Part shown: piece by piece, positions 6,039 through 52,239 of the stretch
Numbering within the stretch: position 1 is the stretch's first letter
Layout of the letters: the number at the start of each line of letters is the position of its first letter
NCBI GenBank assembly: GCA_964523645.1
Contig: CAZGAW010000004.1
Location: 8,284 to 72,283 of the forward strand
Direction: 5' to 3'
Length of the DNA stretch: 64,000 bases
Source: an uncultured bacterium
GTDB lineage: Bacteria; Poribacteria; WGA-4E; WGA-3G
Position numbers and translations under genes: made by a program
The notes under the pieces: model-generated
What the model was told of the DNA's origin: nothing
Seen by the model: only the letters and a program-made list of their open reading frames with translations
Database searches by the model: none

Positions 6039-6485
6039 TTATATAGGCGGACTGCAATTTATATCGATGATATACCGATGCGGCGGGAACGTATTTTTTA
6101 CCGATTGCACAAAACATCACGTAACTGCAGGACGATTTCGTTTACCGGTCTTGTCCGTGTAACGCAATACCTCTGACATTTAACGATTAAATGTTTGCTT
6201 AATTTTGCCACTTTATGTTAAAATAAATAATAGAAAAATTCCCGCAGGGTCAAACCGTTAAAGTTAAATGCCCGCTTTTCATTTGTTTTTGACCTTTGCC
6301 ATAGGCTATACTAAACCTATCCTACGGCTACATCGGTATCGGGAAATTTTAACGCTCGTTGGTAGGATGTTGATTGGATGGGCGGACATCTACCCCAGTC
6401 GTCTTTGTTGTATTCTCGCTTGCCCATCTAAGAAACTCAGTACTTAGTCTTGCGAGCGCGCAGACTTAACGAGGAGGATGAGTTA

Positions 6486-9400
6486 ATGAAAAAACGAACA
6501 CTCGTTTGTTTTTTGATTTTTACATTGTGTGTTCTTTACACTTCAACCCCGAATACTGTTTTCGGGCAAGAAGCTTCTCTTGCACAACAGGTAGCCGCAA
6601 AATACAGCGAGACGCTTCAACGTGAGGATATTCAAGCAGTCCTACCAGCGGTTCTGGAAGGACTCAAAGACCCAGAAATTCAACCCCTTCTGAACCCCGC
6701 GACTATTGGTCTCGTCGTTGACAATCCGGATCTCCTAACGCAATTCGTTCCAGATATAGATCCCCAATTCGTAACCCTTCTGAAAGAGGACGCTGAACTT
6801 CAAGCACTGCTCAGCGATCCATTGGTGCATGCATTGCTCCAAGATCCGGCGGCGATTGATGAGCTTGCAGCGTTATTGAATGTTGGCGCAGAACCTCCAG
6901 TCGTTGAACCACCCGTCGTTGTTGGACCTCCGGTTGTTGTTGAGCCACCTGTGGTTGTTGAACCTCCGGTTGTTGTTGAGCCACCCGTTGTTGAACCGCC
7001 ACGAATGGAAGCTCCATCGCCAGAACCATTTGAGTTGCTTGAAATGCCTCGTGGCGAAGCACTTCTCGGTGGTATTTCCCTAAATACAGCTTCTGGAAGG
7101 CGATTTGTGGAGCAGATAGTCGCTGCATTAGGGCTGCCAGCTTCTCAAGCAGATGCTTTCGTGGATGCAATCCTTGAACAAGTGCCAAGAGGCTTTCTCC
7201 CTAAAAAGCAGATTCGGCAGATTTTAACCTCAAGCCACCAATCTGTTGCTTTTGCACATGAAGCAAGCCAATTAGATGCTGATAACTTCGGAAATGCTAT
7301 AACGCCGAATTTCGCGGATTTCACCTACTTAGAGCAGAGCAGCAAACACCTCACCAGCGATAGCATGCACGTTTATACCCGTGTTCCATCAGCAAATGTT
7401 GGCGGTGTTGTATTTAACCTTACAGACGGTAGAACTTTTGAGGGTATGGAGATTACGTCAGAAAGCATGATCCCATATACCTTTCGATTGGAAGAAACAC
7501 TCGCTGCTACAAACCTACCCGCATGGCCCAGTTTAGATACCCAATTGTTCGATAGTGTTGTTCTCCATTATTCAAACACCGGTCCCAACGGAAATTACAG
7601 TCCTGCTGACATGCAGAGAAATGGGGACACTTGGGAAGTAGAAGTCCCTATCCAGACAGGTAGCAGTACCTATTACTACTTTGAAGTTACACTCACTGAA
7701 CCCGTGGAATTCATGACGTTGAGTCGCGAGAAACTCGCCGAGATATTTCAGGACCCGCACACTATGTCTCTGGCAGCGATCTTAGACGCAACCACGGTAC
7801 TTGATGTTACGAGTTGGGCAATGCCTGACCCGCGTAACCTTCAGTTAGCGGATCGCGGTATTATCGACGCGTTGTTCGATGCTGATGTACAAGCTGCATT
7901 TCTAAGTGTGTTTGGTTCACCTCAGGCAGCTGCCCTAAGAGCAAAAGTGCTAAGTGGCCAGCAGGTTACCTTAAATGAAGTTCTGGGGATCATTTCACCA
8001 AAACAACAGCGTACACTTCAGAACCTGTTGCTCCGGAACACGAATCGACTGACGCAGAAATTTGAAGAATCATTTGATCCGATGCTGGCTTCTGTCTTTA
8101 CGCTGCCAAAAATTAGCCCCGGAACATCGTTCTGGTTTAAACGCATTGACCATATTGCTGATGGGCCCAATCAACAATTAGAGGCTTTAGTACTCGATGC
8201 TGACGGAGTACCAGTAGATCAGATTATTGAAACCTTCACCGTTGACACCAAGGCACCGGAAGCAAGCATTCACATTACACCCGGTGATGCAAATACTGCT
8301 GGCTACTCGAATAACGAAGGTATCTACGTTGCCACCGCCCATCACCCGGGTAACGTAATACTCAATGTTACAGGCGAGCCGAAACATGCTTATGCAGGTC
8401 AAGGTGTAGGTCCAGGCGAAGGATATTTGCTCTATCAGGAAATCGGACTTGATGCCCATGGCGTGCCACACACTAATTGGATGCCACTGACAATTGAGTC
8501 TACCATGTTGTCCTCCAGGATTTGGATTTCCGTCCTTGAACGAAATGAAGACCAGATTATCTCTCTCCTGAAGCAAAACTTTCCACAACTTGTTGGTGGA
8601 CTTGATGATGCGTCAATACTGAGTCTCGCAAAGACTACCAGTCCCGAGGCAGTTTTGGCACTAATTTCGCCAGGAACTATTCAAACTTCCGCTAATTCAT
8701 TTTTCAAAAGTTTAGGGTTAAGGAACTTCAACTTAACCGATGCCCAAGCGGCAACGATACATCAAGCCTTAGGCGGCTCGATAAAAATTCTTGATGAACT
8801 CGTACCGGTTACCTTTGACGCACCACACACTGTGAAGATGGTTGTCCCGCAAGGGGTTTATGGCGACTATGGTGTTCGGGCAATGGGAATCGATATGCTC
8901 TTTAACGTCGGTGCCTACGCTGAACCGACTCGCGTCAGAATCGTCATGCCAGAGAAAGATAAAGCGAGCATTACAGCTGCCAGTATCGGCGACCGAAACG
9001 GCGATGGTGATGCTGATGAACCCTATGAAAGTGGAACTATCTTCTCCAATACTACAGATGGCGTGATGCTAACGGTCAATCTTGATCACCGCTCACCACA
9101 TCCTGCATCCATCCATGTAGAATATATGGACGCAAATGGAGCATGGCAACCCGTCGGTGAAGCACAGATGTTCGCTGAAGGCGAAGGTGAAACAGGATCA
9201 ACCTTTGAAGTGAGTTGGGATGTCACTGATTTTGATGCGTTAGCGAGCGCAGGTGATTCCGTCATGGTACGCGCCGTGGCAATGAACTACCTCCAACTGA
9301 CACACGTGTCCGAACCGTTCTCAATAAAATTGGATGATGATGTTCACCCGGTTGACCTTGAGGTGTTAGCACTCGTTCTTGACCCTGAATCGATTACGGA

Positions 9401-12119
9401 AACGAATCCAGATAGTGGTGGACCACAAGGCACGGTCGTTGTTAATGCATATACGCCACAACGGACCCACCCCGGGATTGGCTCCATCCAATTGGTAATC
9501 GGTGAGGAAGTTGTTGGCACAGGTGATACAGGCGTTCTCGCTACCGCTGAAGAAATCGCAGCGTTACAAGAGAATACCGACTTCATTACCGACCTTGTTG
9601 CAGTTGCAGCGCAATCAACAGCCGCAGGTGGACTCACAGGAAAACCGATCGCTTACCCAACCTACCTGAAATGGGCGGTTGAGATAGATACTACGGCTCT
9701 CGAAGACACCATCACGGCAGAGAGTGATGCAGCACGCGATGCTTCCAAAGATGACAGTCAGCACATGGTAACTGCAATCGCAATCACCAGCAGTGCTGAG
9801 GAAGTACCGGGACAGCCGGGTGCCAAGACATATCTATCGGTTGACAACGTTGACGATGTCGCACCGTTAGGTCCCACAAACATTGTCGCTGTGGCAGATG
9901 TCGCTGGAATGATTGAAGCAGACGCAGATGGCAACTACACAGTCGGTGGAATCGTTGATGAAACAGTTGAATCACCGATAGCAATTTATACCGTTGAACC
10001 GACTGCTGATCCAAGCACGTATGCCTCGGTTAAGATAGTTCGAGTAGATGCCGACGGCAACGAGATCGACCCGATTGACGGTGAAGTCGGTGCTTTGGAC
10101 CTTACGGATGATGTCGGAATGCTTGAAAATGGAGTTTACATGCTTCACGCTCTAGCAGTTGACGAAGCCGGTAATGTCCAAACCGATGAATCGCCACAAA
10201 CCGCGGTGCATGTGCTGAACTTCCGAGTCACTGATGTTACAAGGCTCGTCGTTACAGCCGTTGACGGTGTGGATGTGCCGAGAACACCACCTGAACCGAT
10301 TCCACTTCGGAGTTCACTTACTGTAGGCTTTGATGTTGACAACGGTTCGTTAGATGCAGAAGAACTCAGCGGTTCTGTTCCTGGAAATGAAGTATCAAGC
10401 GAAAGTGAAGAAAATCCAGAAAATTCCTTCTCATTGAAGGTAGATGTTTCAGGGTTAGCCGATGGTGTTTACACACCAGAAGCCGTTGTTACCAAACGTA
10501 ACGGTTCGGTTAGCTTCCCATTGAAAACCATCAATCTGGATAACACCGGTCCGATGGTTGAAATTCAAACACCTTCGGAAGATGACTCTGTAGATAGTTT
10601 ACCAACCTTCCACGCAACCTATCACGATGGTGAAGGTAGTGGTGTTAACGGTGCAAGCGGAAGCCTCGCTCTCGCACGCCTCCATCCACCCGACGAAGTT
10701 TCAGTAGATGTTGACCAGAATTCTCTTGAAAAAGATGAAGAAGTATTGGTCTACACCCGCACTGAGGAACTTCCAGGTGGGGCATATCGAGTCACTGTGC
10801 AAGTTGCCGATATTCTCGGAAACGTCGGTGAAGGTTCTGCTGAGTTCGCTATCAATGGAACGCCCGCAGACACAACACCGCCAGTCATCACTGAGGCGGC
10901 TCCATCAGGGGTCATTAAGGGTGAAAGTTGGGTAACGCTCTCAGCAGTTGTCAACGACGCGGAATCTAAGGTTATAAGTGTAAAGTTCGGTATAAACGAC
11001 AAACCGTTCCGCTCGATCGCACCGGCACAAATCGCTGAAGGGCGAGTTCAGACAGCTGAAAGTTTCACGGCAGGTACGCACACCATCAAACTCATTGCCG
11101 TCAGTGAAGGTGGTACACGGGAACACACGTGGACCTTCACGTTGGAAGTCGATAACGTCGCACCGACGATCACCTCGATCACGCCAACAGGTACTATCCG
11201 TGCTGGACTCCCGGTAATTTCGGCGAGTGCCAACGATGAATCAGGCGTTGACGAAATGGACATCGCCCTGATGGATAGCGATGGCGAAGAGGTGGAAGGT
11301 GCCACAGAAGATGATGGCGAAGATGATGTGGCAGGTATCACCCGCTTGGATTTCATTCCTGAAGCACCTCTTGGTGAGGGAACTTACACGATTGAAGTCC
11401 GTGCAACGGATACGATCGGCAACTCTGCGACAGCGAAAGGTAGTTTCACAATCGACTTCGATACTGCCGCTCCGGTTATCACGATGTCGTCGCCCCAGAA
11501 TGAGGCTCGTTTGACTGAACGCCGACCGCAGATTTCGATAACCTATGCCGATGCTGAATCCGGTATAGATACTGATTCTATCCGCTTCGTTCTTGATGAC
11601 CAGCTGATTAACCTCGCACCGAATCAGAAGTCGGCATCGCAAGTGGTATATACCCCACCTGCCGAACTCGCTTTCGGGCAACATACGGTTAAACTCGAAG
11701 TATCTGACATGGCGCATAAAGAGGGGAACGTCTCTGAGAAGAGTGCTGGTGCCCGTAAGGCGAACATGGCAGTCCATGAGTTTACATTCTTTGTTGAGAG
11801 TGAGGAAGGCCCAGTATTGGCATCGCGTCCGATTAACGCTCCCAATCCGTTCAAGGATAATACGCGTATCTCCTTCACATTGACTCGACAGTCTACAGTC
11901 AGTATCATTATTTATGATATGACACTCCGACCGGTTCGAGTTCTTGTGGATAACGAGGTTTGGGATGCAGGCGAGTACGTTGGCAAAGGTGCTATCGGTT
12001 GGGATGGAACGTCCACCGCTGGCGAAGACTTAGCTCGAGGCGTTTACTTCTGTCAGATTATGGTCGCAGACGGTTTCGAGCCAGAATATGCCATTCTTAA
12101 ACTCGCACTGACGCGCTAA
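6486..12119 (+). CDS. giant secreted surface protein with Pro-Val repeats, Ig/cadherin-like beta domains and a T9SS-type C-terminal sorting domain
   Basis: Strong GGAGG RBS before ATG at 6486 and a signal peptide MKKRTLVCFLIFTLCVLYTSTPNTVFGQ. A PPVVVE repeat tract follows. The C-terminal ~95 aa match the Por_Secre_tail pattern (NAPNPF, ISFTL, IIIYD, WDGT, GVYFCQI, KLALTR). Confidence 0.75.
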   Translation: MKKRTLVCFLIFTLCVLYTSTPNTVFGQEASLAQQVAAKYSETLQREDIQAVLPAVLEGLKDPEIQPLLNPATIGLVVDNPDLLTQFVPDIDPQFVTLLKEDAELQALLSDPLVHALLQDPAAIDELAALLNVGAEPPVVEPPVVVGPPVVVEPPVVVEPPVVVEPPVVEPPRMEAPSPEPFELLEMPRGEALLGGISLNTASGRRFVEQIVAALGLPASQADAFVDAILEQVPRGFLPKKQIRQILTSSHQSVAFAHEASQLDADNFGNAITPNFADFTYLEQSSKHLTSDSMHVYTRVPSANVGGVVFNLTDGRTFEGMEITSESMIPYTFRLEETLAATNLPAWPSLDTQLFDSVVLHYSNTGPNGNYSPADMQRNGDTWEVEVPIQTGSSTYYYFEVTLTEPVEFMTLSREKLAEIFQDPHTMSLAAILDATTVLDVTSWAMPDPRNLQLADRGIIDALFDADVQAAFLSVFGSPQAAALRAKVLSGQQVTLNEVLGIISPKQQRTLQNLLLRNTNRLTQKFEESFDPMLASVFTLPKISPGTSFWFKRIDHIADGPNQQLEALVLDADGVPVDQIIETFTVDTKAPEASIHITPGDANTAGYSNNEGIYVATAHHPGNVILNVTGEPKHAYAGQGVGPGEGYLLYQEIGLDAHGVPHTNWMPLTIESTMLSSRIWISVLERNEDQIISLLKQNFPQLVGGLDDASILSLAKTTSPEAVLALISPGTIQTSANSFFKSLGLRNFNLTDAQAATIHQALGGSIKILDELVPVTFDAPHTVKMVVPQGVYGDYGVRAMGIDMLFNVGAYAEPTRVRIVMPEKDKASITAASIGDRNGDGDADEPYESGTIFSNTTDGVMLTVNLDHRSPHPASIHVEYMDANGAWQPVGEAQMFAEGEGETGSTFEVSWDVTDFDALASAGDSVMVRAVAMNYLQLTHVSEPFSIKLDDDVHPVDLEVLALVLDPESITETNPDSGGPQGTVVVNAYTPQRTHPGIGSIQLVIGEEVVGTGDTGVLATAEEIAALQENTDFITDLVAVAAQSTAAGGLTGKPIAYPTYLKWAVEIDTTALEDTITAESDAARDASKDDSQHMVTAIAITSSAEEVPGQPGAKTYLSVDNVDDVAPLGPTNIVAVADVAGMIEADADGNYTVGGIVDETVESPIAIYTVEPTADPSTYASVKIVRVDADGNEIDPIDGEVGALDLTDDVGMLENGVYMLHALAVDEAGNVQTDESPQTAVHVLNFRVTDVTRLVVTAVDGVDVPRTPPEPIPLRSSLTVGFDVDNGSLDAEELSGSVPGNEVSSESEENPENSFSLKVDVSGLADGVYTPEAVVTKRNGSVSFPLKTINLDNTGPMVEIQTPSEDDSVDSLPTFHATYHDGEGSGVNGASGSLALARLHPPDEVSVDVDQNSLEKDEEVLVYTRTEELPGGAYRVTVQVADILGNVGEGSAEFAINGTPADTTPPVITEAAPSGVIKGESWVTLSAVVNDAESKVISVKFGINDKPFRSIAPAQIAEGRVQTAESFTAGTHTIKLIAVSEGGTREHTWTFTLEVDNVAPTITSITPTGTIRAGLPVISASANDESGVDEMDIALMDSDGEEVEGATEDDGEDDVAGITRLDFIPEAPLGEGTYTIEVRATDTIGNSATAKGSFTIDFDTAAPVITMSSPQNEARLTERRPQISITYADAESGIDTDSIRFVLDDQLINLAPNQKSASQVVYTPPAELAFGQHTVKLEVSDMAHKEGNVSEKSAGARKANMAVHEFTFFVESEEGPVLASRPINAPNPFKDNTRISFTLTRQSTVSIIIYDMTLRPVRVLVDNEVWDAGEYVGKGAIGWDGTSTAGEDLARGVYFCQIMVADGFEPEYAILKLALTR
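6901..7005 (+). repeat. 15-bp coding tandem repeat encoding (E/G)PPVVV x6
   Basis: Direct tandem repeats gaaccacccgtcgtt/gttggacctccggtt, in frame inside the giant gene. Confidence 0.6.
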
Positions 12120-30815: not shown

Positions 30816-31058
30816 ATGCAAAAACTCGACCGTATAACATTTAATCCAAATGTAATGGGCGGCAAGCCTTGTATCCGCGGCATGAGGGTCACTGTCGGAA
30901 CACTCGTCGGCCTGGTTGCTAGCGGCAATTCCGTCGAAGACATCCTGAAAGCCTACCCTTATGTAGAAGAAGAGGACATCCGTCAAGCTCTTACTTACGC
31001 TGCCTGGCGCGTTGAAGAAATTGAATTGCCCCTAGATATCTATGAAAATACTGATTGA
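30816..31058 (+). CDS. DUF433-family antitoxin-like protein
   Basis: AGGAGG RBS. The 80-aa protein has NPNVMGGKPCIRGMRVTV, typical of DUF433. Its stop overlaps the start of the next gene. Confidence 0.6.
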   Translation: MQKLDRITFNPNVMGGKPCIRGMRVTVGTLVGLVASGNSVEDILKAYPYVEEEDIRQALTYAAWRVEEIELPLDIYENTD

Positions 31059-31416
31059 TATGAACCTTTCTCTTGACTGGGTCAACATTTTTGAACAGCA
31101 CGGGTGGCATGCTGTTCACTGGCAAGAGATTGGTGATCCGCGCGCGCCAGATAGCACCATTATGGATTGGGCACGGGTAAATAACTATGTTGTGTTTACA
31201 CGTGATCTTGACTTTGGAAAGTTTCTGGCAACCACCCGTGCTCAAGGTCCAAGTGTAATTCAGGTTCGGAGACCGAACACGCTTCCTCACAATTTTGAAG
31301 ATTGGTTCGTCAATATTCTTCATCAGCACGAAGCAGCCTTAGAACGTGGTGCTTTACTTACCGTGGACGAAGGGCGAGGAAGAATGCGTCTTTTACCCTT
31401 TCCAACAGGTTTATAG
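31042..31416 (+). CDS. DUF5615-family PIN-like putative toxin
   Basis: MKILIDMNLS...VVFTRDLDF resembles DUF5615, a commonly recurring partner of DUF433. Confidence 0.55.
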   Translation: MKILIDMNLSLDWVNIFEQHGWHAVHWQEIGDPRAPDSTIMDWARVNNYVVFTRDLDFGKFLATTRAQGPSVIQVRRPNTLPHNFEDWFVNILHQHEAALERGALLTVDEGRGRMRLLPFPTGL

Positions 31417-33079: not shown

Positions 33080-34171
33080 TTATTGTAGTTTCGACTTTAA
33101 TTCAGCAAGATCCTTGTCAAGCGAGGCTTCTTCGGCATAACTCGAAAATTCGCGCTCTAATTTCGTGTCCTGATATGCGACATCCACCTCAGCCGCCGTT
33201 TTCGCTAAAGTAGCTGCCTCCGTTGCGTCCTGATCCATCTTCGCAAGCGTTTCAAAGGCTCTACTGTCGTGTATCTCTTTGAGCATCTCGCGGAGATGCG
33301 CTTCAGCATCAACGTTTCTGTTTTTCGCCACAACAGCTGCTTTTTTCCCTTCCGCTTCCATCATTTTCTGCTGAAGATGCTCAAGAAGATCACTGAGATC
33401 CCGGACGCTCTGTTTCTGTTCTTCCCACTGCTTCTTGTATTGATCTGCTAATCGTCGGTATTCGTTTCGTTTTTCGAGGTCCTCACGCGCCAAATCCTCA
33501 CGTTCGGCTTTAAGGGAAATGAGTGCCCGTTCTTGCCACTGTTCTGCTTGGACGACAGCCGCTTCATAAGCCTCCTGAAACTGTTTTTCAACCCCAATAG
33601 AGGCACCAACCTTCTCCCGCGCCTCCGAAAGCCGGTTTCTCATCTCAACGATGACGTTCTCTAAAACCCGTTCTGGGTCTTCAGTTTCAGTCTCAGTCTG
33701 CTCCGGTTCCGGTTCATATTTCACAACAACCGTTTCTGCTAATTTATCTCCGAGCCGTTGTTGTTTTTCTCCAAGGAACCAGAGTAAATCAAATGGTTGG
33801 AAGATACCTGAGAGTCGGCGAAGGAAAGCATCTTTGAAAGTACACGGCTTGCCATCCTTCAAACGAAGCACTTGCAGTGACAGCAGCTTCTTCCCTATGC
33901 CCTGACCTTTTCTGAAACCATCGAGAAAAAACAAACCAAATATCCACAAGGCACCACTGAATAGAGCACCAAATATGCTAACAAAACCGATGGTTAAGAT
34001 TGATCTGGAGGCACTGAAGGGTTCGAGAAACAGGACTGCTACAAGCGATAAAAGGAGTCCGAAGACTGATTGCACGGTACCTAAGAGCGCAATATCTATA
34101 AAAAGCGCGTATAAGCGTGTCATTCGGGATGCCAATTTGAATTTTTTCCCTGCAATCTTAATAGACTTCAT
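33080..34171 (-). CDS. RDD-family membrane domain fused to PspA/IM30 (ESCRT-III-like) coiled-coil domain
   Basis: N-terminal RDD pattern (RLYALFIDIALLG...GQGIGKKLLSLQVLRLKDGKP...RLGDKLAETVVV). The C-terminal ~200 aa align with PspA (LSEAREKV...QAEQWQERALISLKAEREDLAREDLEKRNEY...DAEAHLREMLKEI). Confidence 0.6.
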   Translation of the reverse strand: MKSIKIAGKKFKLASRMTRLYALFIDIALLGTVQSVFGLLLSLVAVLFLEPFSASRSILTIGFVSIFGALFSGALWIFGLFFLDGFRKGQGIGKKLLSLQVLRLKDGKPCTFKDAFLRRLSGIFQPFDLLWFLGEKQQRLGDKLAETVVVKYEPEPEQTETETEDPERVLENVIVEMRNRLSEAREKVGASIGVEKQFQEAYEAAVVQAEQWQERALISLKAEREDLAREDLEKRNEYRRLADQYKKQWEEQKQSVRDLSDLLEHLQQKMMEAEGKKAAVVAKNRNVDAEAHLREMLKEIHDSRAFETLAKMDQDATEAATLAKTAAEVDVAYQDTKLEREFSSYAEEASLDKDLAELKSKLQ

Positions 34172-34225
34172 CTTTGAATCCTAAAAATCTTTTTGTTTTT
34201 GTACAATACACATCTCGATGAACTG

Positions 34226-35404
34226 TCATTTTTGTACTTTCGCTTTCAATTCAGCAAGGTCTTTGTCAAGCGAGGTTTTTTCAGCATAACTTGCAAACTC
34301 ACGCTCCAATTTCATATCCTGATATGCGACATCGACTTCAGCCGCTGCTTTCGCTAAGGTGGCCGCCTCAGTCGCATCCTGCTCCGTCTTTACAAGCGTA
34401 TCAAATCTTCCGCTGTCCTGTATCTCTTTTAACATCTCACGCAGATGCGCTTCAGCATTGATGTTTCTGTGTTGTGCCATGACAACCGCTTTCTTCCCTT
34501 CCGCTGCCATTACTTTCTGTTGGAAATGTTCAAGAAGGTTGCTAAGTTCCCGAACGATCTGTTTCTGATTTTCCCACTGATTTTTGTATTGATCTGCCAA
34601 TCGTTGATACTCGTTCCGTTTTTCGAGGTCTTCGCGTGCCAGATCTTCACGTCCTGCTTTGAGAGAGATAATAGCGCGTTCTTGCCACCGTTCTGCTTGG
34701 ATAACGGCTCCTTCATAAGCATCCTGAAATTGTTTCTCAACGCCGATGGAGGCATCAACTTTTTCGCGCGCCTCTGAAAGCCTATTCGTCATCTCAGCGA
34801 TAACACTCTCTAAGACCCGTTCTGGGTCTTCAGTTTCAATTTCAACCTGCTCCGGTTCCGGTTCATATTTCACAACGACTGTCTCTGCGAATTTATCCCC
34901 TATTCGCTGCCGTTTTTTTCCAAAGGTCCAGAGGGAATCCAAGGGTTGAAAGACGCTTGTGAGTCGGCGAATAAAAGAATCTTTGAAAGTACACGGTTTA
35001 CCATCTTTCAATCTCAGCACCTGCAGTGATAGCAGTTTTTTGCCAAGTCCTTGCCCATTTTTGAAGCCATCCATGAGAAATAAACCGGCTGTCCACAGTG
35101 CTATACCGCCCGAGGCTAAGGTATCCGGATTATTATTTCCCCACGTCCACGGTCCGAAAACAAAAACTAAAAGTAATTGCGCGGCAACCAACACACTTTT
35201 TGGTAGTTTGGTTTTAGGTCCGAATATCCACAATAATGCGCTGAGCAATCCAATCTGAATGGGGCCAAAACTCATTGCTGCAAGAAAGAGGAACAAAACC
35301 ATTAGGATACTCGCTAAGAGCATGCCATCGATGAAAAACGCAAATAAGCGCGCGAATCGAGACCCTAATCTGAATTTTTTACCCGTAATTTCAATAAATT
35401 TCAT
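34226..35404 (-). CDS. RDD-PspA/IM30 fusion protein, tandem paralog with extra TM segments
   Basis: AGAGGA RBS. About 80% nucleotide identity to 33080-34171 over the PspA-like half. Confidence 0.6.
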   Translation of the reverse strand: MKFIEITGKKFRLGSRFARLFAFFIDGMLLASILMVLFLFLAAMSFGPIQIGLLSALLWIFGPKTKLPKSVLVAAQLLLVFVFGPWTWGNNNPDTLASGGIALWTAGLFLMDGFKNGQGLGKKLLSLQVLRLKDGKPCTFKDSFIRRLTSVFQPLDSLWTFGKKRQRIGDKFAETVVVKYEPEPEQVEIETEDPERVLESVIAEMTNRLSEAREKVDASIGVEKQFQDAYEGAVIQAERWQERAIISLKAGREDLAREDLEKRNEYQRLADQYKNQWENQKQIVRELSNLLEHFQQKVMAAEGKKAVVMAQHRNINAEAHLREMLKEIQDSGRFDTLVKTEQDATEAATLAKAAAEVDVAYQDMKLEREFASYAEKTSLDKDLAELKAKVQK

Positions 35405-35596
35405 CTTGAAAGTCCTCTACGCTTTCTACGGGAACATCTCGCGTGTTAGATTGAAACAGACAAACTTGCAGTGTTTCGCACCGCAGCATGGATCTCGGTT
35501 GAACATCAGTTCTGTGAATCCTACCGCGTTTTGTACATAATTATATAGAGTCTATGAAGGTGAGAAAAGATAGTAAAATGAACACCGGAAACGAAG

Positions 35597-35618
35597 GGCG
35601 AGGTATGGAGACCTCGCC
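35597..35618 (-). terminator. GC-rich hairpin GGCGAGGT-N6-ACCTCGCC 9 nt after the stop of the Gfo/Idh/MocA gene
   Basis: Member of the GGCGAGGT(T) hairpin family. The downstream U-tract is weak (cuucguuucc on the minus strand). Confidence 0.35.
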
Positions 35619-47940: not shown

Positions 47941-50900
47941 TCACCTCAAAATGTCCTCGGGTCCATAGGACTCTGTGAAGGTTGTCCAGATGCCTGTGCG
48001 CTTATCGTAACGACTCAATCCACGGTATGTCCCAAACCAGACGTAGTCACTATCAACAGCCATTGAGAGAATACCGTTATGCGCTAAACCGCTCTCTCGG
48101 GTGTAAGTCGTCCAATTATTCGTTAACCGATTAAATCGGCTGACCCCCGCGTTGTAAGTACCGATCCATAACTCTGTCCCATCAACACCGATAGTGGTAA
48201 CCTTATTGCTGGCGAGGCCATCTTCCGTCGTATAGGCAGCCCAAACTTCCGTCTTTTCATTATAGAGCGTCACACCGAGATCACTGCCGAACCAGACATT
48301 GTCGCCATCAATAGCGATGCAACTTACTTCATCGCTGGCGAGCCCATCTTCCACTGTGATTGTTTTCCAGATGTCTCGACTGATGTCGTATCGGCTGACC
48401 CCCCTGCGCGTCCCGACCCAGACGTGCCTTTTGCTCGCCGTGATACACCAAATTTGATCGGTAACCAATGATTCCGCAAACTCCTTAGATACAGCAGAAG
48501 GCTGAATCTCAGTTCCCGAAGTATAGGTAATCCAAGCGTTGAGGTCATCCGCTGTGCGGGGGTACTTTCCAATCCCAGAATTAGTGCCAACCCAGATGTT
48601 ATTGCCATCGCTACTGACAGAAGTCACGTTGTTGGCAGGCAGCCCATGGTGAGTCTTGTATTGATCCCACTCCAGTGCGATCTTATCAAAACGGTTCGCA
48701 CCGTCGCGTGTACCGACCCAGACGTATTGTTCATCGACCACTATAGAACTCACAACGTCATCGGAGAGACAGTCTCTCTTTTTGCGGCGATGCTCGTGCC
48801 AATGCCCGCCATGGGTTTCTATGTTTTCGGATCCACCCTCCTGCTGATAATTCTTCCAGGTCCCGAAGACCTTGTCATAGCGGGACATACCTTTATCGGT
48901 ACCGACCCAGACGAACCGCTCATCTGTAGCTACAGTCCGAATCGTGCGTCCAACAAGCGTCGGCAGTGCCTTCAACGGGGTCCAAGATTCTTTCCGTTTG
49001 TCATAACGGGAAAGTCCCCGTAAGGTGCCTACCCATACATAGTCTTCATCCACTGCAAGCCCATATTCACCTACATGGTTATGGAGTAACCCTTTGATAT
49101 CCCGAAACGATGCCCAGGTACCAGAGGCGAAATGAAATCGTCGAAGCCCATTGTTCGGTGCAGCTAACCAGAGATAGTCGTCATCGGCTGCCAGCTCAAG
49201 CGTTCCACGTCCGGATCTAATCGTTGTCCACTCTTTTGTACGCCTGTCGTATCGAGTAACACCCGCATCTTCCCAAGGTCTGTAGAGTATCCATACATCT
49301 TTTTCTGTGGCAATAATACGTCTAATCGTCCTTGAAGCGAGCACGTCATTCGTTGAAAACGTCGTCCATTCTTTTGTTTTTTTATCGTATCGCGATAACG
49401 GACGGTTGCTATCTCTATCCCATTCCGAGCGTGCAACCCAGATGAAATCGGCATCTACAGTAATCCACTCCGCGCCTCTACCTGCCAGTCCATCCCTGGG
49501 TCCGAAATCCTTCCACTCACGGGTGATTTCATTGTAACGCGTGAGACCCCGACCGGATGCATACCAGATTTCGGGACCATCAACCCCAAGGGCGTTTACA
49601 CGCTCAATCTGATGAATGTTTTCTTGTTCAACCACTTCCCATGTTCCCGCTGCTTTCCTATAATGGTTTAATTCCAAACCTATCATTGGAATAACCCAGA
49701 CGCTCTGCTCACTCACAGCGATTTTACTTATATCGTCTGTAGAGAGTCCGTCCTCTGTCGTAAAATGCTGCCATGTATCCGAGATTTTATCGTAACGGAG
49801 AACGCCATAGTCGGTTGTAAACCAGACAGCGTCGGTGTCAACATACGTCCAACGCACGAGTGTCATGGACCTTTTCTGCGTAGACTGCAAAATATCTAAG
49901 CGTGTGAAACGCCGCCAGGTCTCTGTTGGACGATGAAATCGCACAAGCGCACCGTTCGGCGAAGCACCCCAACTATTGAACCAGATGTAATCTCCATCAA
50001 ATTTAATGTTTGAAACCCTTGTTTCAAGAAACGGCTCCCGTACTGGACGAGATTGATGTAACACCTGTCTTGCACTTTGCGAGTTGTATTCAAGGAGGCC
50101 GCTATCCGTTGCCAACCAAAGTGTTTCATCCACACCACACAGGATGTCGCGAACGTTATAAGGCACATTTGAGAGAGAATTCCAAGTATCCGAAGCGATC
50201 GTGTAGCTTCCCAACCCCAGTGGAGTGCCGATCCAGAGGATACCATCTCGAAAAGCGAGTGCCGTGACATTAGGCGATGGCAATCGGTCATTAAAGGAGA
50301 GTGGGATCCAACGCTGGCGGGTGTTATCATATTTTGCGAGCCCTCGGCGTGTTCCCGCCCAAAGTGTCTGCTTTTCGTTTTCGCTCGTAGAAAGGAGTAC
50401 ATTAACATACGGATTCGGGAGACCATCGACAACGCTGTGCATCTGCTTATCAGCAATCGAATATCGCCAAACGCCTTCTGCACCGCCAAACCAAACACTT
50501 TCATCATGAACGAGTGCGGAGGCTATAAGGGGGTTTTTGGGTGTGCCTGGTAATGATAGTTGTGTCCAAGCCGAAGAAAGTGTATCATACATCGCGGGAC
50601 CCGAACTTGTACCAATCCAGATTCGGTGATTCTGTGGTGCAGTACCAGTATCAATAGATGTTACAAAAGTTTCGCCTTGGGTCTGCATTTCCGGCGAGAC
50701 ATGGAATGTCCACTCTTCACCTAAATATGCTCGCGCCCCAAGCCCTCGATCTGACCCAATCCAGACCTGTGCAGAACGGCTTTTGGCTTTCGGCTTTTGG
50801 CTTTCGGTTTCCATCTGCAAAGAGGTTTCTGATGAACCAGAATCTTCTTGCTGATGGCTGACTGCTGATGGCTGACTACTGTTTGGCTGATGGCTAATAT

Positions 50901-52239
50901 GTATTGACGTGACGTATGGTGTCGGCAGCCCGTCTTCTCTGGAGATGATTTCCCAGCTGCGCGTTTGAGGCGAGTAAATCGAAATTCCTGCAACCGTTGC
51001 CAGCCAAAGGTTTCCGTCCGGATCACGTGTTAGATAGCGGACATCGTTATCCGCAAGAAAATCGGCTTGTTTGTAAATTGTCCATTCACCGGTTACCTTA
51101 TCAAAACGACTCACACCATCCTCTTTGCTCGCAAACCAGACATCGTCGCCTTGCGTCGTAATCCAACTCACATGATTACTCGCCAATCCATCTGATTTGG
51201 TGTAATGCACCCACGTATTGACAGGCTTAATAAACCGATGTACCCCCGCATTGGCAGTTCCAAACCAAACTTGGAATCCATCCGCACGGATACAGGAAAT
51301 CATATTGCTTTTCAGTAGATCGGTCTTTGTATACGTTTTGATGAAGGTTTGGTCAACTTGATTGTACTGACTGACACCCTCCTTCTGGGTACCAAACCAA
51401 ACGCTGTCATCGTCCACCGCAATCGTGGCGATCTCACTGTCTATCAAACCATCTGATTTCGTATAGTTGTTCCAAGAATCCGTATCTCGATGATAGCGAC
51501 TTACCCCACCTCTACTGAACCTCGGATCCTCGTCCCATCCATGCGGATCCGGATTTATTTCCCTATCAGTACCGACCCAAACGTATTCTGGTTCAACTGC
51601 GATTGTCGTAATGACTTTACTGACCAAGCCGTCCTTTCGCGTCCGCACCGCCCAACTGTCAATCGTTTTGTCATAACGGTTCAACCCCTCAGATGTTCCA
51701 AACCAGACGTAGTTCCCGTCCACGGCAATGGAGGAAACCTGATCGCTCGCCAAGCCATCAATAGTGCGGAAGGTTGCAAAGGTGCTTGTCTGCATATCGT
51801 AGCGGCTCACACCTTCATCTGTGGCGAACCAAACCCATTGTCCATCCACCGCAACGGCATTCACCATGTCGTTCGCTAACCCATCTTCCATCGTATAGTG
51901 AATCCACCTATCTTGCTGACGGTCCCACCGCGTAACGCCTCTTGCTGTTGCAATCCACACATTGCCTGAATCTGCAGCAATACAATTGACCTCATTGCTG
52001 ACAAGTGTCCGTTTCACGGGCCACGTCTTCTCGGAACGTGAACCTGCATCGGAATTCTCAAACGGAAGGTTGGATTGCTGATCCGTTGTTAAGGGTCCAC
52101 ACCCTATAATCACAAAATAGGAAAGCAATAACAAAGCACACGCAATAAAAGCAGTGCCTGAACATTTAAGGCTGAATTTGATACGCCGAAGGTTATTTTT
52201 ATCTGCTGGGTTCATCATTTTTATCGCCATCCTTTTCAC
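47941..52239 (-). CDS. giant lipoprotein built from ~25 two-component-regulator-propeller (Reg_prop) beta-propeller repeats, with no kinase domain
   Basis: Lipobox VIIGCG. Repeats of the type DGLASN.V..I..DG..VWFGT..G..RYD recur throughout. A Ser/Gln-rich linker and a His-rich patch sit in the middle. The start codon is ambiguous (GTG at 52239 or ATG at 52230/52215). Confidence 0.6.
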   Translation of the reverse strand: MKRMAIKMMNPADKNNLRRIKFSLKCSGTAFIACALLLLSYFVIIGCGPLTTDQQSNLPFENSDAGSRSEKTWPVKRTLVSNEVNCIAADSGNVWIATARGVTRWDRQQDRWIHYTMEDGLANDMVNAVAVDGQWVWFATDEGVSRYDMQTSTFATFRTIDGLASDQVSSIAVDGNYVWFGTSEGLNRYDKTIDSWAVRTRKDGLVSKVITTIAVEPEYVWVGTDREINPDPHGWDEDPRFSRGGVSRYHRDTDSWNNYTKSDGLIDSEIATIAVDDDSVWFGTQKEGVSQYNQVDQTFIKTYTKTDLLKSNMISCIRADGFQVWFGTANAGVHRFIKPVNTWVHYTKSDGLASNHVSWITTQGDDVWFASKEDGVSRFDKVTGEWTIYKQADFLADNDVRYLTRDPDGNLWLATVAGISIYSPQTRSWEIISREDGLPTPYVTSIHISHQPNSSQPSAVSHQQEDSGSSETSLQMETESQKPKAKSRSAQVWIGSDRGLGARAYLGEEWTFHVSPEMQTQGETFVTSIDTGTAPQNHRIWIGTSSGPAMYDTLSSAWTQLSLPGTPKNPLIASALVHDESVWFGGAEGVWRYSIADKQMHSVVDGLPNPYVNVLLSTSENEKQTLWAGTRRGLAKYDNTRQRWIPLSFNDRLPSPNVTALAFRDGILWIGTPLGLGSYTIASDTWNSLSNVPYNVRDILCGVDETLWLATDSGLLEYNSQSARQVLHQSRPVREPFLETRVSNIKFDGDYIWFNSWGASPNGALVRFHRPTETWRRFTRLDILQSTQKRSMTLVRWTYVDTDAVWFTTDYGVLRYDKISDTWQHFTTEDGLSTDDISKIAVSEQSVWVIPMIGLELNHYRKAAGTWEVVEQENIHQIERVNALGVDGPEIWYASGRGLTRYNEITREWKDFGPRDGLAGRGAEWITVDADFIWVARSEWDRDSNRPLSRYDKKTKEWTTFSTNDVLASRTIRRIIATEKDVWILYRPWEDAGVTRYDRRTKEWTTIRSGRGTLELAADDDYLWLAAPNNGLRRFHFASGTWASFRDIKGLLHNHVGEYGLAVDEDYVWVGTLRGLSRYDKRKESWTPLKALPTLVGRTIRTVATDERFVWVGTDKGMSRYDKVFGTWKNYQQEGGSENIETHGGHWHEHRRKKRDCLSDDVVSSIVVDEQYVWVGTRDGANRFDKIALEWDQYKTHHGLPANNVTSVSSDGNNIWVGTNSGIGKYPRTADDLNAWITYTSGTEIQPSAVSKEFAESLVTDQIWCITASKRHVWVGTRRGVSRYDISRDIWKTITVEDGLASDEVSCIAIDGDNVWFGSDLGVTLYNEKTEVWAAYTTEDGLASNKVTTIGVDGTELWIGTYNAGVSRFNRLTNNWTTYTRESGLAHNGILSMAVDSDYVWFGTYRGLSRYDKRTGIWTTFTESYGPEDILR

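Follow-up and report, generated by a model that had tools for sequence, protein, structure and literature searches.

The stretch of DNA analysed here (the window) comprises 64,000 nt of contig CAZGAW010000004.1 in assembly GCA_964523645.1, from an uncultured member of the Poribacteria. Its minus strand carries two adjacent genes, each encoding an RDD membrane domain followed in the same reading frame by a PspA/IM30 (ESCRT-III-like) domain; all positions below are window coordinates. Gene A, the upstream paralog, occupies 34226..35404 and encodes a 392-amino-acid (aa) protein with an enlarged transmembrane (TM) core, termed A type. Gene B, the downstream paralog, occupies 33080..34171 and encodes a 363-aa protein, termed B type. 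Both open reading frames (ORFs) match the Pfam RDD and PspA_IM30 profiles. The 54-nt spacer between them (34172..34225, minus strand) holds a Shine-Dalgarno-like AGGA for gene B, and such a motif (AGGA/GAGGA) lies 7-8 nt 5' of the ATG in both genes. The original prediction, made from the letters of this sequence, had described a tandem pair of RDD-PspA fusions; both ORFs were found where it placed them, the peptide strings it cited lie in gene B, and the tandem fusion pair is confirmed. Its estimate of about 80% nucleotide identity is accurate for the 3' two-thirds of the genes but not for the whole: over their full length the genes are 75.5% identical, a figure that rises to 77-84% in the 3' ~820 nt and drops to 52-57% in the TM core, where indels amount to 84 nt. 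At the protein level, the two are 67% identical, and their TM cores 28-33%.

The C-terminal half of each protein is a member of the PspA/Vipp1 family. The domain spans aa 190-389 of gene A (34238..34837, minus strand) and aa 161-361 of gene B (33089..33691, minus strand), and scores 71.0 and 67.4 bits, respectively, against PF04012, for which the curated cut-off is 33.9 bits. These matches run essentially end to end, from profile position 20 to 218 in A and from 19 to 217 in B, out of 220. When compared with all PDB chains by phmmer, B residues 162-361 align with residues 21-216 of solved Nostoc and Synechocystis Vipp1 and of PspA, at E values from 1.5e-14 to 2.5e-6. A profile built from 12 stand-alone canonical PspAs gives 165 bits on gene B and 155 bits on gene A; it matched no other ORF in the window, which holds no further PspA or RDD ORF beyond A and B. 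The NCBIfam equivalogs for PspA/LiaH (TIGR02977, NF007974 and NF045984) score 36-67 bits against cut-offs of 243-380. As these scores fall far under the cut-offs, the window proteins are family members rather than orthologs of classical PspA or LiaH. There is no Pfam match to Snf7 (ESCRT-III proper) at E<=1, and kinship with Snf7 is at the level of the fold.

The predicted structure agrees with these alignments. For gene B, AlphaFold2 (AF2) was run on a multiple-sequence alignment of 108 sequences, among them members of distant subfamilies and stand-alone relatives of the RDD half, giving a mean predicted local distance difference test (pLDDT) score of 84.6. An earlier AF2 model from a shallow alignment (60 sequences, 74-93% identity) had a mean pLDDT of 58.6 and an uninterpretable RDD half. 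In the deeper model, the C-terminal half consists of helices at residues 166-221 (α1), 225-283 (α2/3), 287-302 and 304-335 (the α4 region), and 337-362 (α5), and the hairpin has pLDDT 85-96. The top 17 Foldseek matches are all Vipp1 or PspA at a probability of 1.00, with 24-27% identity to the solved Vipp1/PspA structures, and the modelled hairpin superposes on E. coli PspA (4whe) with a root-mean-square deviation of 2.7 Å. Snf7, CHMP1B and Asgard ESCRT-IIIB follow at probabilities of 0.72-0.94. Taken in aggregate, the model confirms an ESCRT-III-like fold for this half, and the assignment of the C-terminal ~200 aa to the PspA/Vipp1 helices is borne out. A generic coiled coil is ruled out by the specific, full-length nature of the PspA/IM30 match.

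What these proteins do not contain is the amphipathic helix α0 (residues ~1-20), as every alignment begins at profile or structure position 19-21. In canonical PspA N-termini, α0 (MGIFxRLxxLxxANxNDLI) leads directly into the sequence AEDPEKML. In the window proteins, the RDD domain and a linker (YEPEPEQTETE) precede TEDPERVL, which aligns with that canonical AEDPEKML. The PspA part therefore begins exactly at the conserved EDPE motif, indicating that α0 has been replaced by the RDD module and a 14-residue acidic linker. In gene B, this acidic, proline-rich linker (YEPEPEQTETETED; aa 152-165; 33677..33718, minus strand) connects the RDD module to α1 and sits, by comparison with canonical PspA N-termini, at the position where α0 would end; AF2 predicts it to be disordered, with pLDDT <50 at residues 156-162 only. 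The ~40-aa C-terminal extension (α6) of Vipp1 is also absent, with both proteins stopping 1-3 residues past the end of the α5 alignment. Two α5 interface residues, by contrast, are retained. In Vipp1, α0 stacking forms interface 2 between protofilaments, and F197 and L200 contribute to interface 3 (PMC11919738). Residues F342 and Y345 of gene B align with these two positions and are kept across the fusion family. The substitution of α0 also bears on the earlier description of PspA proteins as soluble factors recruited to membranes by partners. That description needs amending, as recruitment is not by partners alone: PspA binds the membrane directly through α0, a helix that serves as its anchor there and forms the lining of the polymer lumen (PMC12358876), and this is the very part that the RDD module replaces.

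The N-terminal half is an RDD domain. PF06271 scores 41.2 bits on gene A (aa 15-173; 34886..35362, minus strand) and 48.3 bits on gene B (aa 14-145; 33737..34132, minus strand), against a curated cut-off of 24.1 bits and from profile position 2 or 3 to 136 of 137. The RDD family is defined in its Pfam description by a conserved Arg that opens the first TM helix and by two conserved Asp, one of them inside that helix; in these proteins, R19, D26 and D84 are conserved, as an RDD identity for this half would have it. R19, R118, D128, Q138, R139 and T147 are the same in all of 108 fusion and stand-alone sequences, with D26, D84 and D142 close to invariant. Both window genes carry R19, D26, D84, R118, D128, Q138, R139 and D142. 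As these polar residues are invariant in fusions and in stand-alone proteins alike, the RDD module is not a decayed anchor. In this, the N-terminal ~150 aa of the fusions resemble the wider family, which includes SppI/YteJ, the Halobacillus andaensis RDD protein and VanZ-RDD fusions: they exceed the Pfam cut-off and keep the conserved Arg and Asp. We know of no characterised RDD protein with a PspA domain.

The closest non-fused relatives belong to a distinct subfamily of stand-alone RDD proteins of 130-220 aa (1,040 matches at E<=1e-5); one named match is from the Acidobacteriota. Fusions and stand-alone members have four motifs in common: IEVAGKxYxLASR in the N-terminal hairpin, DGxxxGQSxGK, GxPC[TS][FY] and KRQRLGDKxAxTxVVK. 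This subfamily has acquired other partners as well. Several members (P0371, P0392, P0418-P0420, P0423, P0431, P0445, P0451 and P0467, with related tails in P0189 and P0206) continue past the RDD domain with a proline-rich linker and an extra TM helix, and end in a conserved, non-helical C-terminal domain of ~150 aa that has no Pfam match. A cryptic PspA domain was considered for such ~360-aa "RDD-only" proteins (P0423 and others) and rejected, as they consist of RDD, the extra TM helix and the non-helical ~150-aa domain. Fusion to different C-terminal modules suggests that this RDD subfamily may serve as a modular membrane platform. Separately, one stand-alone RDD gene (P0206; L079 5001-5654) lies within a nuo cluster, between NADHdh (NuoH-like) and Oxidored_q3 (NuoJ-like) genes, in the usual place of nuoI.

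The architecture of the RDD module also informs the likely placement of the PspA core. In the AF2 model of gene B, the structural module covers aa 1-151 and comprises: an N-terminal β-hairpin (3-13); two long TM helices (16-48 and 54-85; pLDDT 86-94); a short helix and strand (92-103); a helix at 112-133; a helix at 140-145; and a strand at 147-151. Hydropathy places the hydrophobic blocks at 20-55 and 56-86 in B and at 16-62 and 65-89 in A. Of the first 20 residues of B, seven are K/R and none is D/E; loop 49-53 holds no K/R, and residues 86-119 hold ten. Strand 147-151, directly before the linker, could pair in the model only with strands 3-13 and 99-103, which are on the cytoplasmic side. 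Because of this charge distribution and these pairing options, B is predicted to have an N-in/C-in topology, which would make the PspA core cytoplasmic. The hydrophobic stretch of helix 112-133 is only 15 residues long and includes the invariant D128. Given N-in/C-in topology, this helix would be a half or interfacial helix. Relative to B, gene A has a net 28-residue insertion made of two extra hydrophobic segments split by a KTKLPK loop. It probably has four TM helices (about aa 20-44, 47-62, 71-88 and 93-114, from hydropathy and K/R distribution), with an extra helical hairpin as compared to B. As the insertion adds two hydrophobic segments, the in/in parity would be kept.

The fusion is rare and phyletically restricted. 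Gene B has 655 homologs at E<=1e-5; the best 120 all carry both PF06271 and PF04012, and all named ones among these are from Candidatus Poribacteria. A HMMER search of 1.84 billion representatives clustered at 50% identity (best 150 listed) returns 29 proteins at E<=1e-30, followed by ordinary PspAs of ~220 aa at ~30% identity. Among the matches listed, about 15 clusters are full-length fusions, and all of them form one family with the window proteins. Scanning 185,579 species, with one genome apiece, for family-specific peptide patterns yields 72 loci, 70 in Poribacteria and two in metagenome-assembled genomes labelled "uncultured bacterium". Every member that can be assigned to an organism is thus from the Poribacteria, and the suggestion that the architecture is unusual is well founded. 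As the scan relied on patterns specific to this family and the search listed the best 150 representatives, independent fusions to a divergent RDD domain in other phyla are possible. In at least one host, the fusions add to ordinary PspA rather than replace it: the Poribacteria single-amplified genome (SAG) 3G, which carries fusion locus L020, also has a transcribed stand-alone PspA (843 nt, pfam04012 only) on contig_59.60 (supplement of PMC5087111).

Fusion genes typically occur in same-strand arrays. Within ±5 kb at 77 loci, the copy number is one at 21 loci, two at 36, three at 14, four at four and five at two, with one of the five-copy arrays on Tara scaffold L075 (2112-8424). The first gene of the array in other Poribacteria genomes is an A-type ortholog (389-398 aa). 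The position of the genes is also fixed across the clade, in a syntenic slot bounded by a Gfo/Idh/MocA dehydrogenase gene and a sulfatase gene. Several arrays have expanded copies or variant architectures (L075 2112-8424; L047 1093-3732; L073 5001-6638; L064, L065, L067 and L068). Among the variants are forms in which two RDD modules precede a single PspA domain, a protein of 879 aa that has PspA and four RDD matches (L047), and end-to-end double units (P0124, 651 aa; P0127, 716 aa). Between the second and third RDD-PspA genes of the five-copy array lies a conserved 101-aa ORF without a Pfam match (L075 4457-4762; L076 897-1202).

Both halves of the fusion are maintained by selection, as reflected in low ratios of nonsynonymous to synonymous substitution (dN/dS): 0.03-0.13 for the C-terminal part of RDD and 0.05-0.13 for the PspA half. 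The TM core is at 0.17-0.45, and it is the TM cores that cleanly separate A-type from B-type genes across genomes. The two halves have distinct histories. In quartet tests on the 33 loci with one A and one B gene, the RDD parts return orthology in 528 of 528 quartets for both parts; the PspA half returns orthology in 302, a "within-genome" grouping in 223 and a "cross" grouping in three. When the quartets are stratified by clade, all intra-clade quartets are orthologous. The within-genome signal comes from the 11 loci of the window's clade, where the PspA half of the A-type gene is of B type. This comparison sets L001, L003, L007-L012, L015 and L040 against L004 and L016-L044, and in the window it concerns 33089-33691 versus 34238-34837.

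The simplest reading of these sequence relationships is a single conversion or recombination event in the ancestor of the window's clade, with a boundary near the linker. Because the PspA halves of A and B have reached a synonymous divergence (dS) of 1.10, and the longest stretch of identity is 18 nt, the event would be old, and ongoing A-B gene conversion is rejected for the window genome on the same grounds. Acquisition of a B-type PspA half by gene A accounts for the ~80% identity at the 3' end beside a divergent TM core, and it implies that a B-type core is functional when joined to a membrane module of A type. Of the tandem duplication put forward in the original prediction, the tandem pair stands; a recent, local origin does not, as the pair is one of a set of old arrays (1-5 copies), and its 3' identity of ~80% derives from the old conversion.

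The surroundings of the genes provide some indication of how they are expressed. At other loci, gaps between neighbouring array copies (70 gene pairs) are most often 52 nt long, with 4-nt overlaps in some cases; because the gaps cluster in this way, genes A and B are probably co-transcribed. A conserved block, ACTATCTTTTC...GACTCTATATAAT (ACTATCyTTTT...GACTCTATATAAT), lies at 35540..35574 on the minus strand, about 140-170 nt before the start of gene A, and recurs in other upstream regions: its 10-mers CTATCCTTTT and GACTCTATAT are present in 36 and 18 of 73, respectively. A σ70 scan (TTGACA/TATAAT) finds no match at this block, which is a possible Poribacteria promoter judged by its recurrence. 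No σ54 -24/-12 element lies upstream of gene A, and the strict σ54 pattern appears in one of the 73 upstream regions; σ54 or classical psp regulation is rejected on this basis. A terminator-like hairpin identified by consensus match (35597..35618, minus strand; 8-bp stem with six GC pairs and a weak T tract) lies just 3' of the upstream Gfo/Idh/MocA gene and suggests that the pair has its own transcription start. An intrinsic terminator was also considered 3' of gene B and discarded, since the hairpin there folds no better than shuffled sequence (z = 0.10).

Besides the Gfo/Idh/MocA dehydrogenase, the neighbours of the fusion genes are sulfatases, ADH, ThuA and a toxin-antitoxin pair. The flanks hold no psp or lia partner gene (pspBC, pspF, liaI/liaFSR) and no AAA ATPase of Vps4/CdvC type. 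The toxin-antitoxin pair consists of two overlapping ORFs of 80 and 124 aa (30816-31416, plus strand) with a DUF433/PIN-like (DUF5615) appearance. As it is annotated in L002 and missing at the corresponding place in L001 and L075, it represents a variable insertion in the syntenic block. Two very large ORFs also lie in the window, of 1889 aa (6450-12119, plus strand) and 1432 aa (47941-52239, minus strand).

The RDD-PspA architecture has apparently not been described. In a phylogenomic survey of phage shock protein (PSP) systems (Ravi et al. 2024; PMC11237479), >98% of PspA homologs are single-domain, and the fusions reported are PspA-NlpC/P60, PspA-PspAA and an Actinobacteria Snf7-RND transporter; neither RDD nor Poribacteria is mentioned. 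An RDD-PspA fusion is likewise mentioned neither by Popp et al. (PMC9239133) nor in a 2025 ESCRT-III review (PMC7619361), and literature joining the two domain names yields irrelevant co-occurrences only. The window proteins thus fall among the <2% of PspA homologs that are multidomain. Like Snf7-RND, they combine an ESCRT-III fold with a membrane protein; they differ from the known fusions in partner domain, in phylum, and in order, with the membrane module N-terminal and replacing α0. Another fusion noted during this work, P0269 (539 aa), has the reverse order: its PspA_IM30 domain is full, α0 included, and scores 177.6 bits, and the membrane domain at its C-terminus is TIC20-like (102.4 bits).

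Comparison with characterised systems highlights which features are retained. Like PspA, Vipp1 and LiaH, the window proteins keep the whole α1-α5 core, at ~30% identity to ordinary PspAs, and the interface-3 residues; the absence of a C-terminal extension is a feature in common with PspA but not Vipp1. They differ in bearing a polytopic RDD domain and acidic linker in place of α0 and, whereas PspA, Vipp1 and LiaH switch between soluble and peripheral states, are predicted to be integral to the membrane. Unlike the classical Psp and Lia genes, they have no pspBC, pspF or liaI neighbours and no σ54 promoter, and they occur in multi-copy tandem arrays. The pairing of a small integral membrane protein with a PspA-family effector is well established for LiaI-LiaH of B. 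subtilis and PspB/PspC-PspA of E. coli (PMC11237479, PMC9239133). In the fusions, this link is covalent and therefore constitutive, and the RDD domain is unrelated to LiaI, PspB or PspC. Finally, the arrays resemble eukaryotic, Asgard and Cdv ESCRT-III sets in encoding several paralogous subunits of ESCRT-III fold together, so that mixed or sequential polymers are possible; the differences are that the window proteins have no Snf7 Pfam match and no Vps4/CdvC-type ATPase nearby, and that MIM motifs were not identified. Bacteria usually have one PspA, and duplications that would allow heteropolymers occur in <10% of lineages (PMC7619361).

If these features are considered together, the proteins may form a self-anchored PspA polymer at the membrane's cytoplasmic side, possibly mixed from paralogs, that stabilizes or reshapes the membrane. 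We give this proposal roughly an even chance of being correct. The self-anchored stress or remodelling module suggested in the original prediction would be of this kind and is likewise a hypothesis. It would involve: insertion of each gene product as an integral inner-membrane protein, with the N-terminus of the RDD module cytoplasmic; presentation by this module (two TM helices in B, probably four in A) of a conserved polar cluster facing the cytoplasm; and covalent attachment, via the short acidic linker, to a complete α1-α5 core on the cytoplasmic side. As the RDD module stands where α0 would, the polymer-forming core would be held permanently within a few nanometres of the bilayer. Tethered cores could then polymerise through the conserved hairpin and α5 contacts to give membrane-attached, ESCRT-III-like sheets or filaments, and these would stabilize or reshape the cytoplasmic membrane. 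The tandem paralogs combine one and the same core with different TM modules, and mixed polymers may form from them. Assembly may be coupled to lipid or membrane state by the conserved polar site of RDD. The same-strand arrays, the fixed slot and the B-type PspA half in gene A are consistent with the possibility that the paralogs act together.

Several observations weigh against this proposal. Loss of α0 and its interface 2 may prevent assembly of the canonical rings and rods, and a narrow tube may be too crowded to take a polytopic TM module from every subunit. With a single copy at 21 of the 77 loci, the family cannot depend on co-assembly between paralogs. The PspA domain would lie in the periplasm if helix 112-133 were to span the membrane fully. 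As there are neither psp partners nor a stress-type promoter nearby, context does not support a link to stress. The fusion genes are not among the listed rows of the SAG 3G transcriptome table, in which the contig_121.122 neighbours are listed. Additionally, in four independent neighbourhoods of stand-alone RDD relatives (L077/L078, L079, L081 and L082), a small sample, no pspA is found beside the RDD gene, and this Rosetta-stone test lends no support to a general RDD-PspA partnership.

The crowding problem would be relieved if only a minority of subunits bore a TM module. In such an arrangement, the fusions would act as membrane receptors or nucleators, that is, as fixed seeds on which soluble, stand-alone PspA co-polymerises, making them a covalent analogue of LiaI or PspB/C. 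The expressed stand-alone PspA of SAG 3G would supply the soluble partner, and the fusion core retains the full α1-α5 set and interface-3 residues with which to engage it. Set against this are the ~30% identity between the fusion core and canonical PspAs, which means that co-polymerisation is not assured, and the arrays of up to five fusion paralogs, which suggest more than the supply of seeds. On balance, nucleation is an unlikely but credible role.

An alternative of much the same low likelihood assigns the work to the RDD domain, which would be a transporter, a path for ions or a unit that binds a ligand within the membrane, and makes the PspA helices a cytoplasmic regulatory, gating or dimerisation domain. 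What RDD domains do is unsettled: B. subtilis SppI (YteJ) regulates the protease SppA through its C-terminal domain (PMC7568657); Na+(Li+,K+)/H+ antiport, dependent on conserved R/D residues, has been reported for the Halobacillus RDD protein (PMC5996927); and a conserved intramembrane binding site facing the cytoplasm has been proposed for the family in the lipocone paper (PMC12419801). Each of these precedents is compatible with a functional RDD centre in the fusions, as are the conservation of the polar residues as in stand-alone relatives, the dN/dS of 0.03-0.13, and the existence of RDD fusions to other C-terminal modules. A regulatory coiled coil, however, needs no end-to-end α1-α5 core with α5 interface residues under a dN/dS of ~0.05-0.13. 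Moreover, the TM core is the fastest-evolving part of the protein (28% A-B identity, dN/dS up to 0.45), which is unusual for a transport pathway.

The self-anchored polymer could also be part of something more elaborate. In this more ambitious and decidedly doubtful version, arrays of 2-5 RDD-anchored paralogs would co-polymerise as a multi-subunit, ESCRT-III-like machine that shapes, partitions or vesiculates the cytoplasmic membrane, with the RDD site reading lipid or membrane state and licensing assembly.

A role in anti-phage defence, or as cargo of a mobile element, is very improbable. It might be entertained given the family name "phage shock", the nearby DUF433/PIN-like pair and a marginal PADLOC match on gene A only (HEC-01A, 17.6 bits, E 4e-4). 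PADLOC finds no match for gene B, however; viral contigs and plasmids hold no member of the family; no integrase or transposase lies among the neighbours; and the genes hold a fixed chromosomal slot clade-wide. A defence system or mobile element is rejected on these scans. An artefact (a generic coiled coil, frameshift, mis-assembly or gene-calling error) can be dismissed, for while long helical proteins do attract weak coiled-coil matches, here to CART, TMEM120 and FOXP-CC (E 0.02-1), it is refuted by a PspA_IM30 score of twice the curated cut-off over the whole profile, E values of ~1e-14 to solved Vipp1/PspA, specific Foldseek matches, and an uninterrupted fusion under purifying selection in >140 ORFs at >70 loci, including complete, finished long-read chromosomes.

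In these searches, the fusion family is found only in one candidate phylum, whose members are mostly sponge-associated. Its interest extends further, as PspA, Vipp1 and ESCRT-III are universal membrane-repair and remodelling polymers, and the coupling of polymer to bilayer through α0 is a current structural focus (PMC12358876, PMC11919738). Here, a natural experiment has exchanged α0 for a permanent polytopic anchor while keeping the core under strong purifying selection. The family thus offers a test of whether, and with what geometry, a tethered ESCRT-III core polymerises when α0 stacking (interface 2) is impossible. Few bacterial settings encode several PspA-type paralogs together; the array loci are among them and allow heteropolymers to be tested, and the small size of the proteins (about 360 aa) makes heterologous expression feasible despite the uncultivated hosts. 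The fusions also provide a functional lead for the widespread RDD domain; if the multi-subunit machine were real, it would represent the first general role for RDD, namely to sense membrane state for cytoplasmic effectors or to anchor them.

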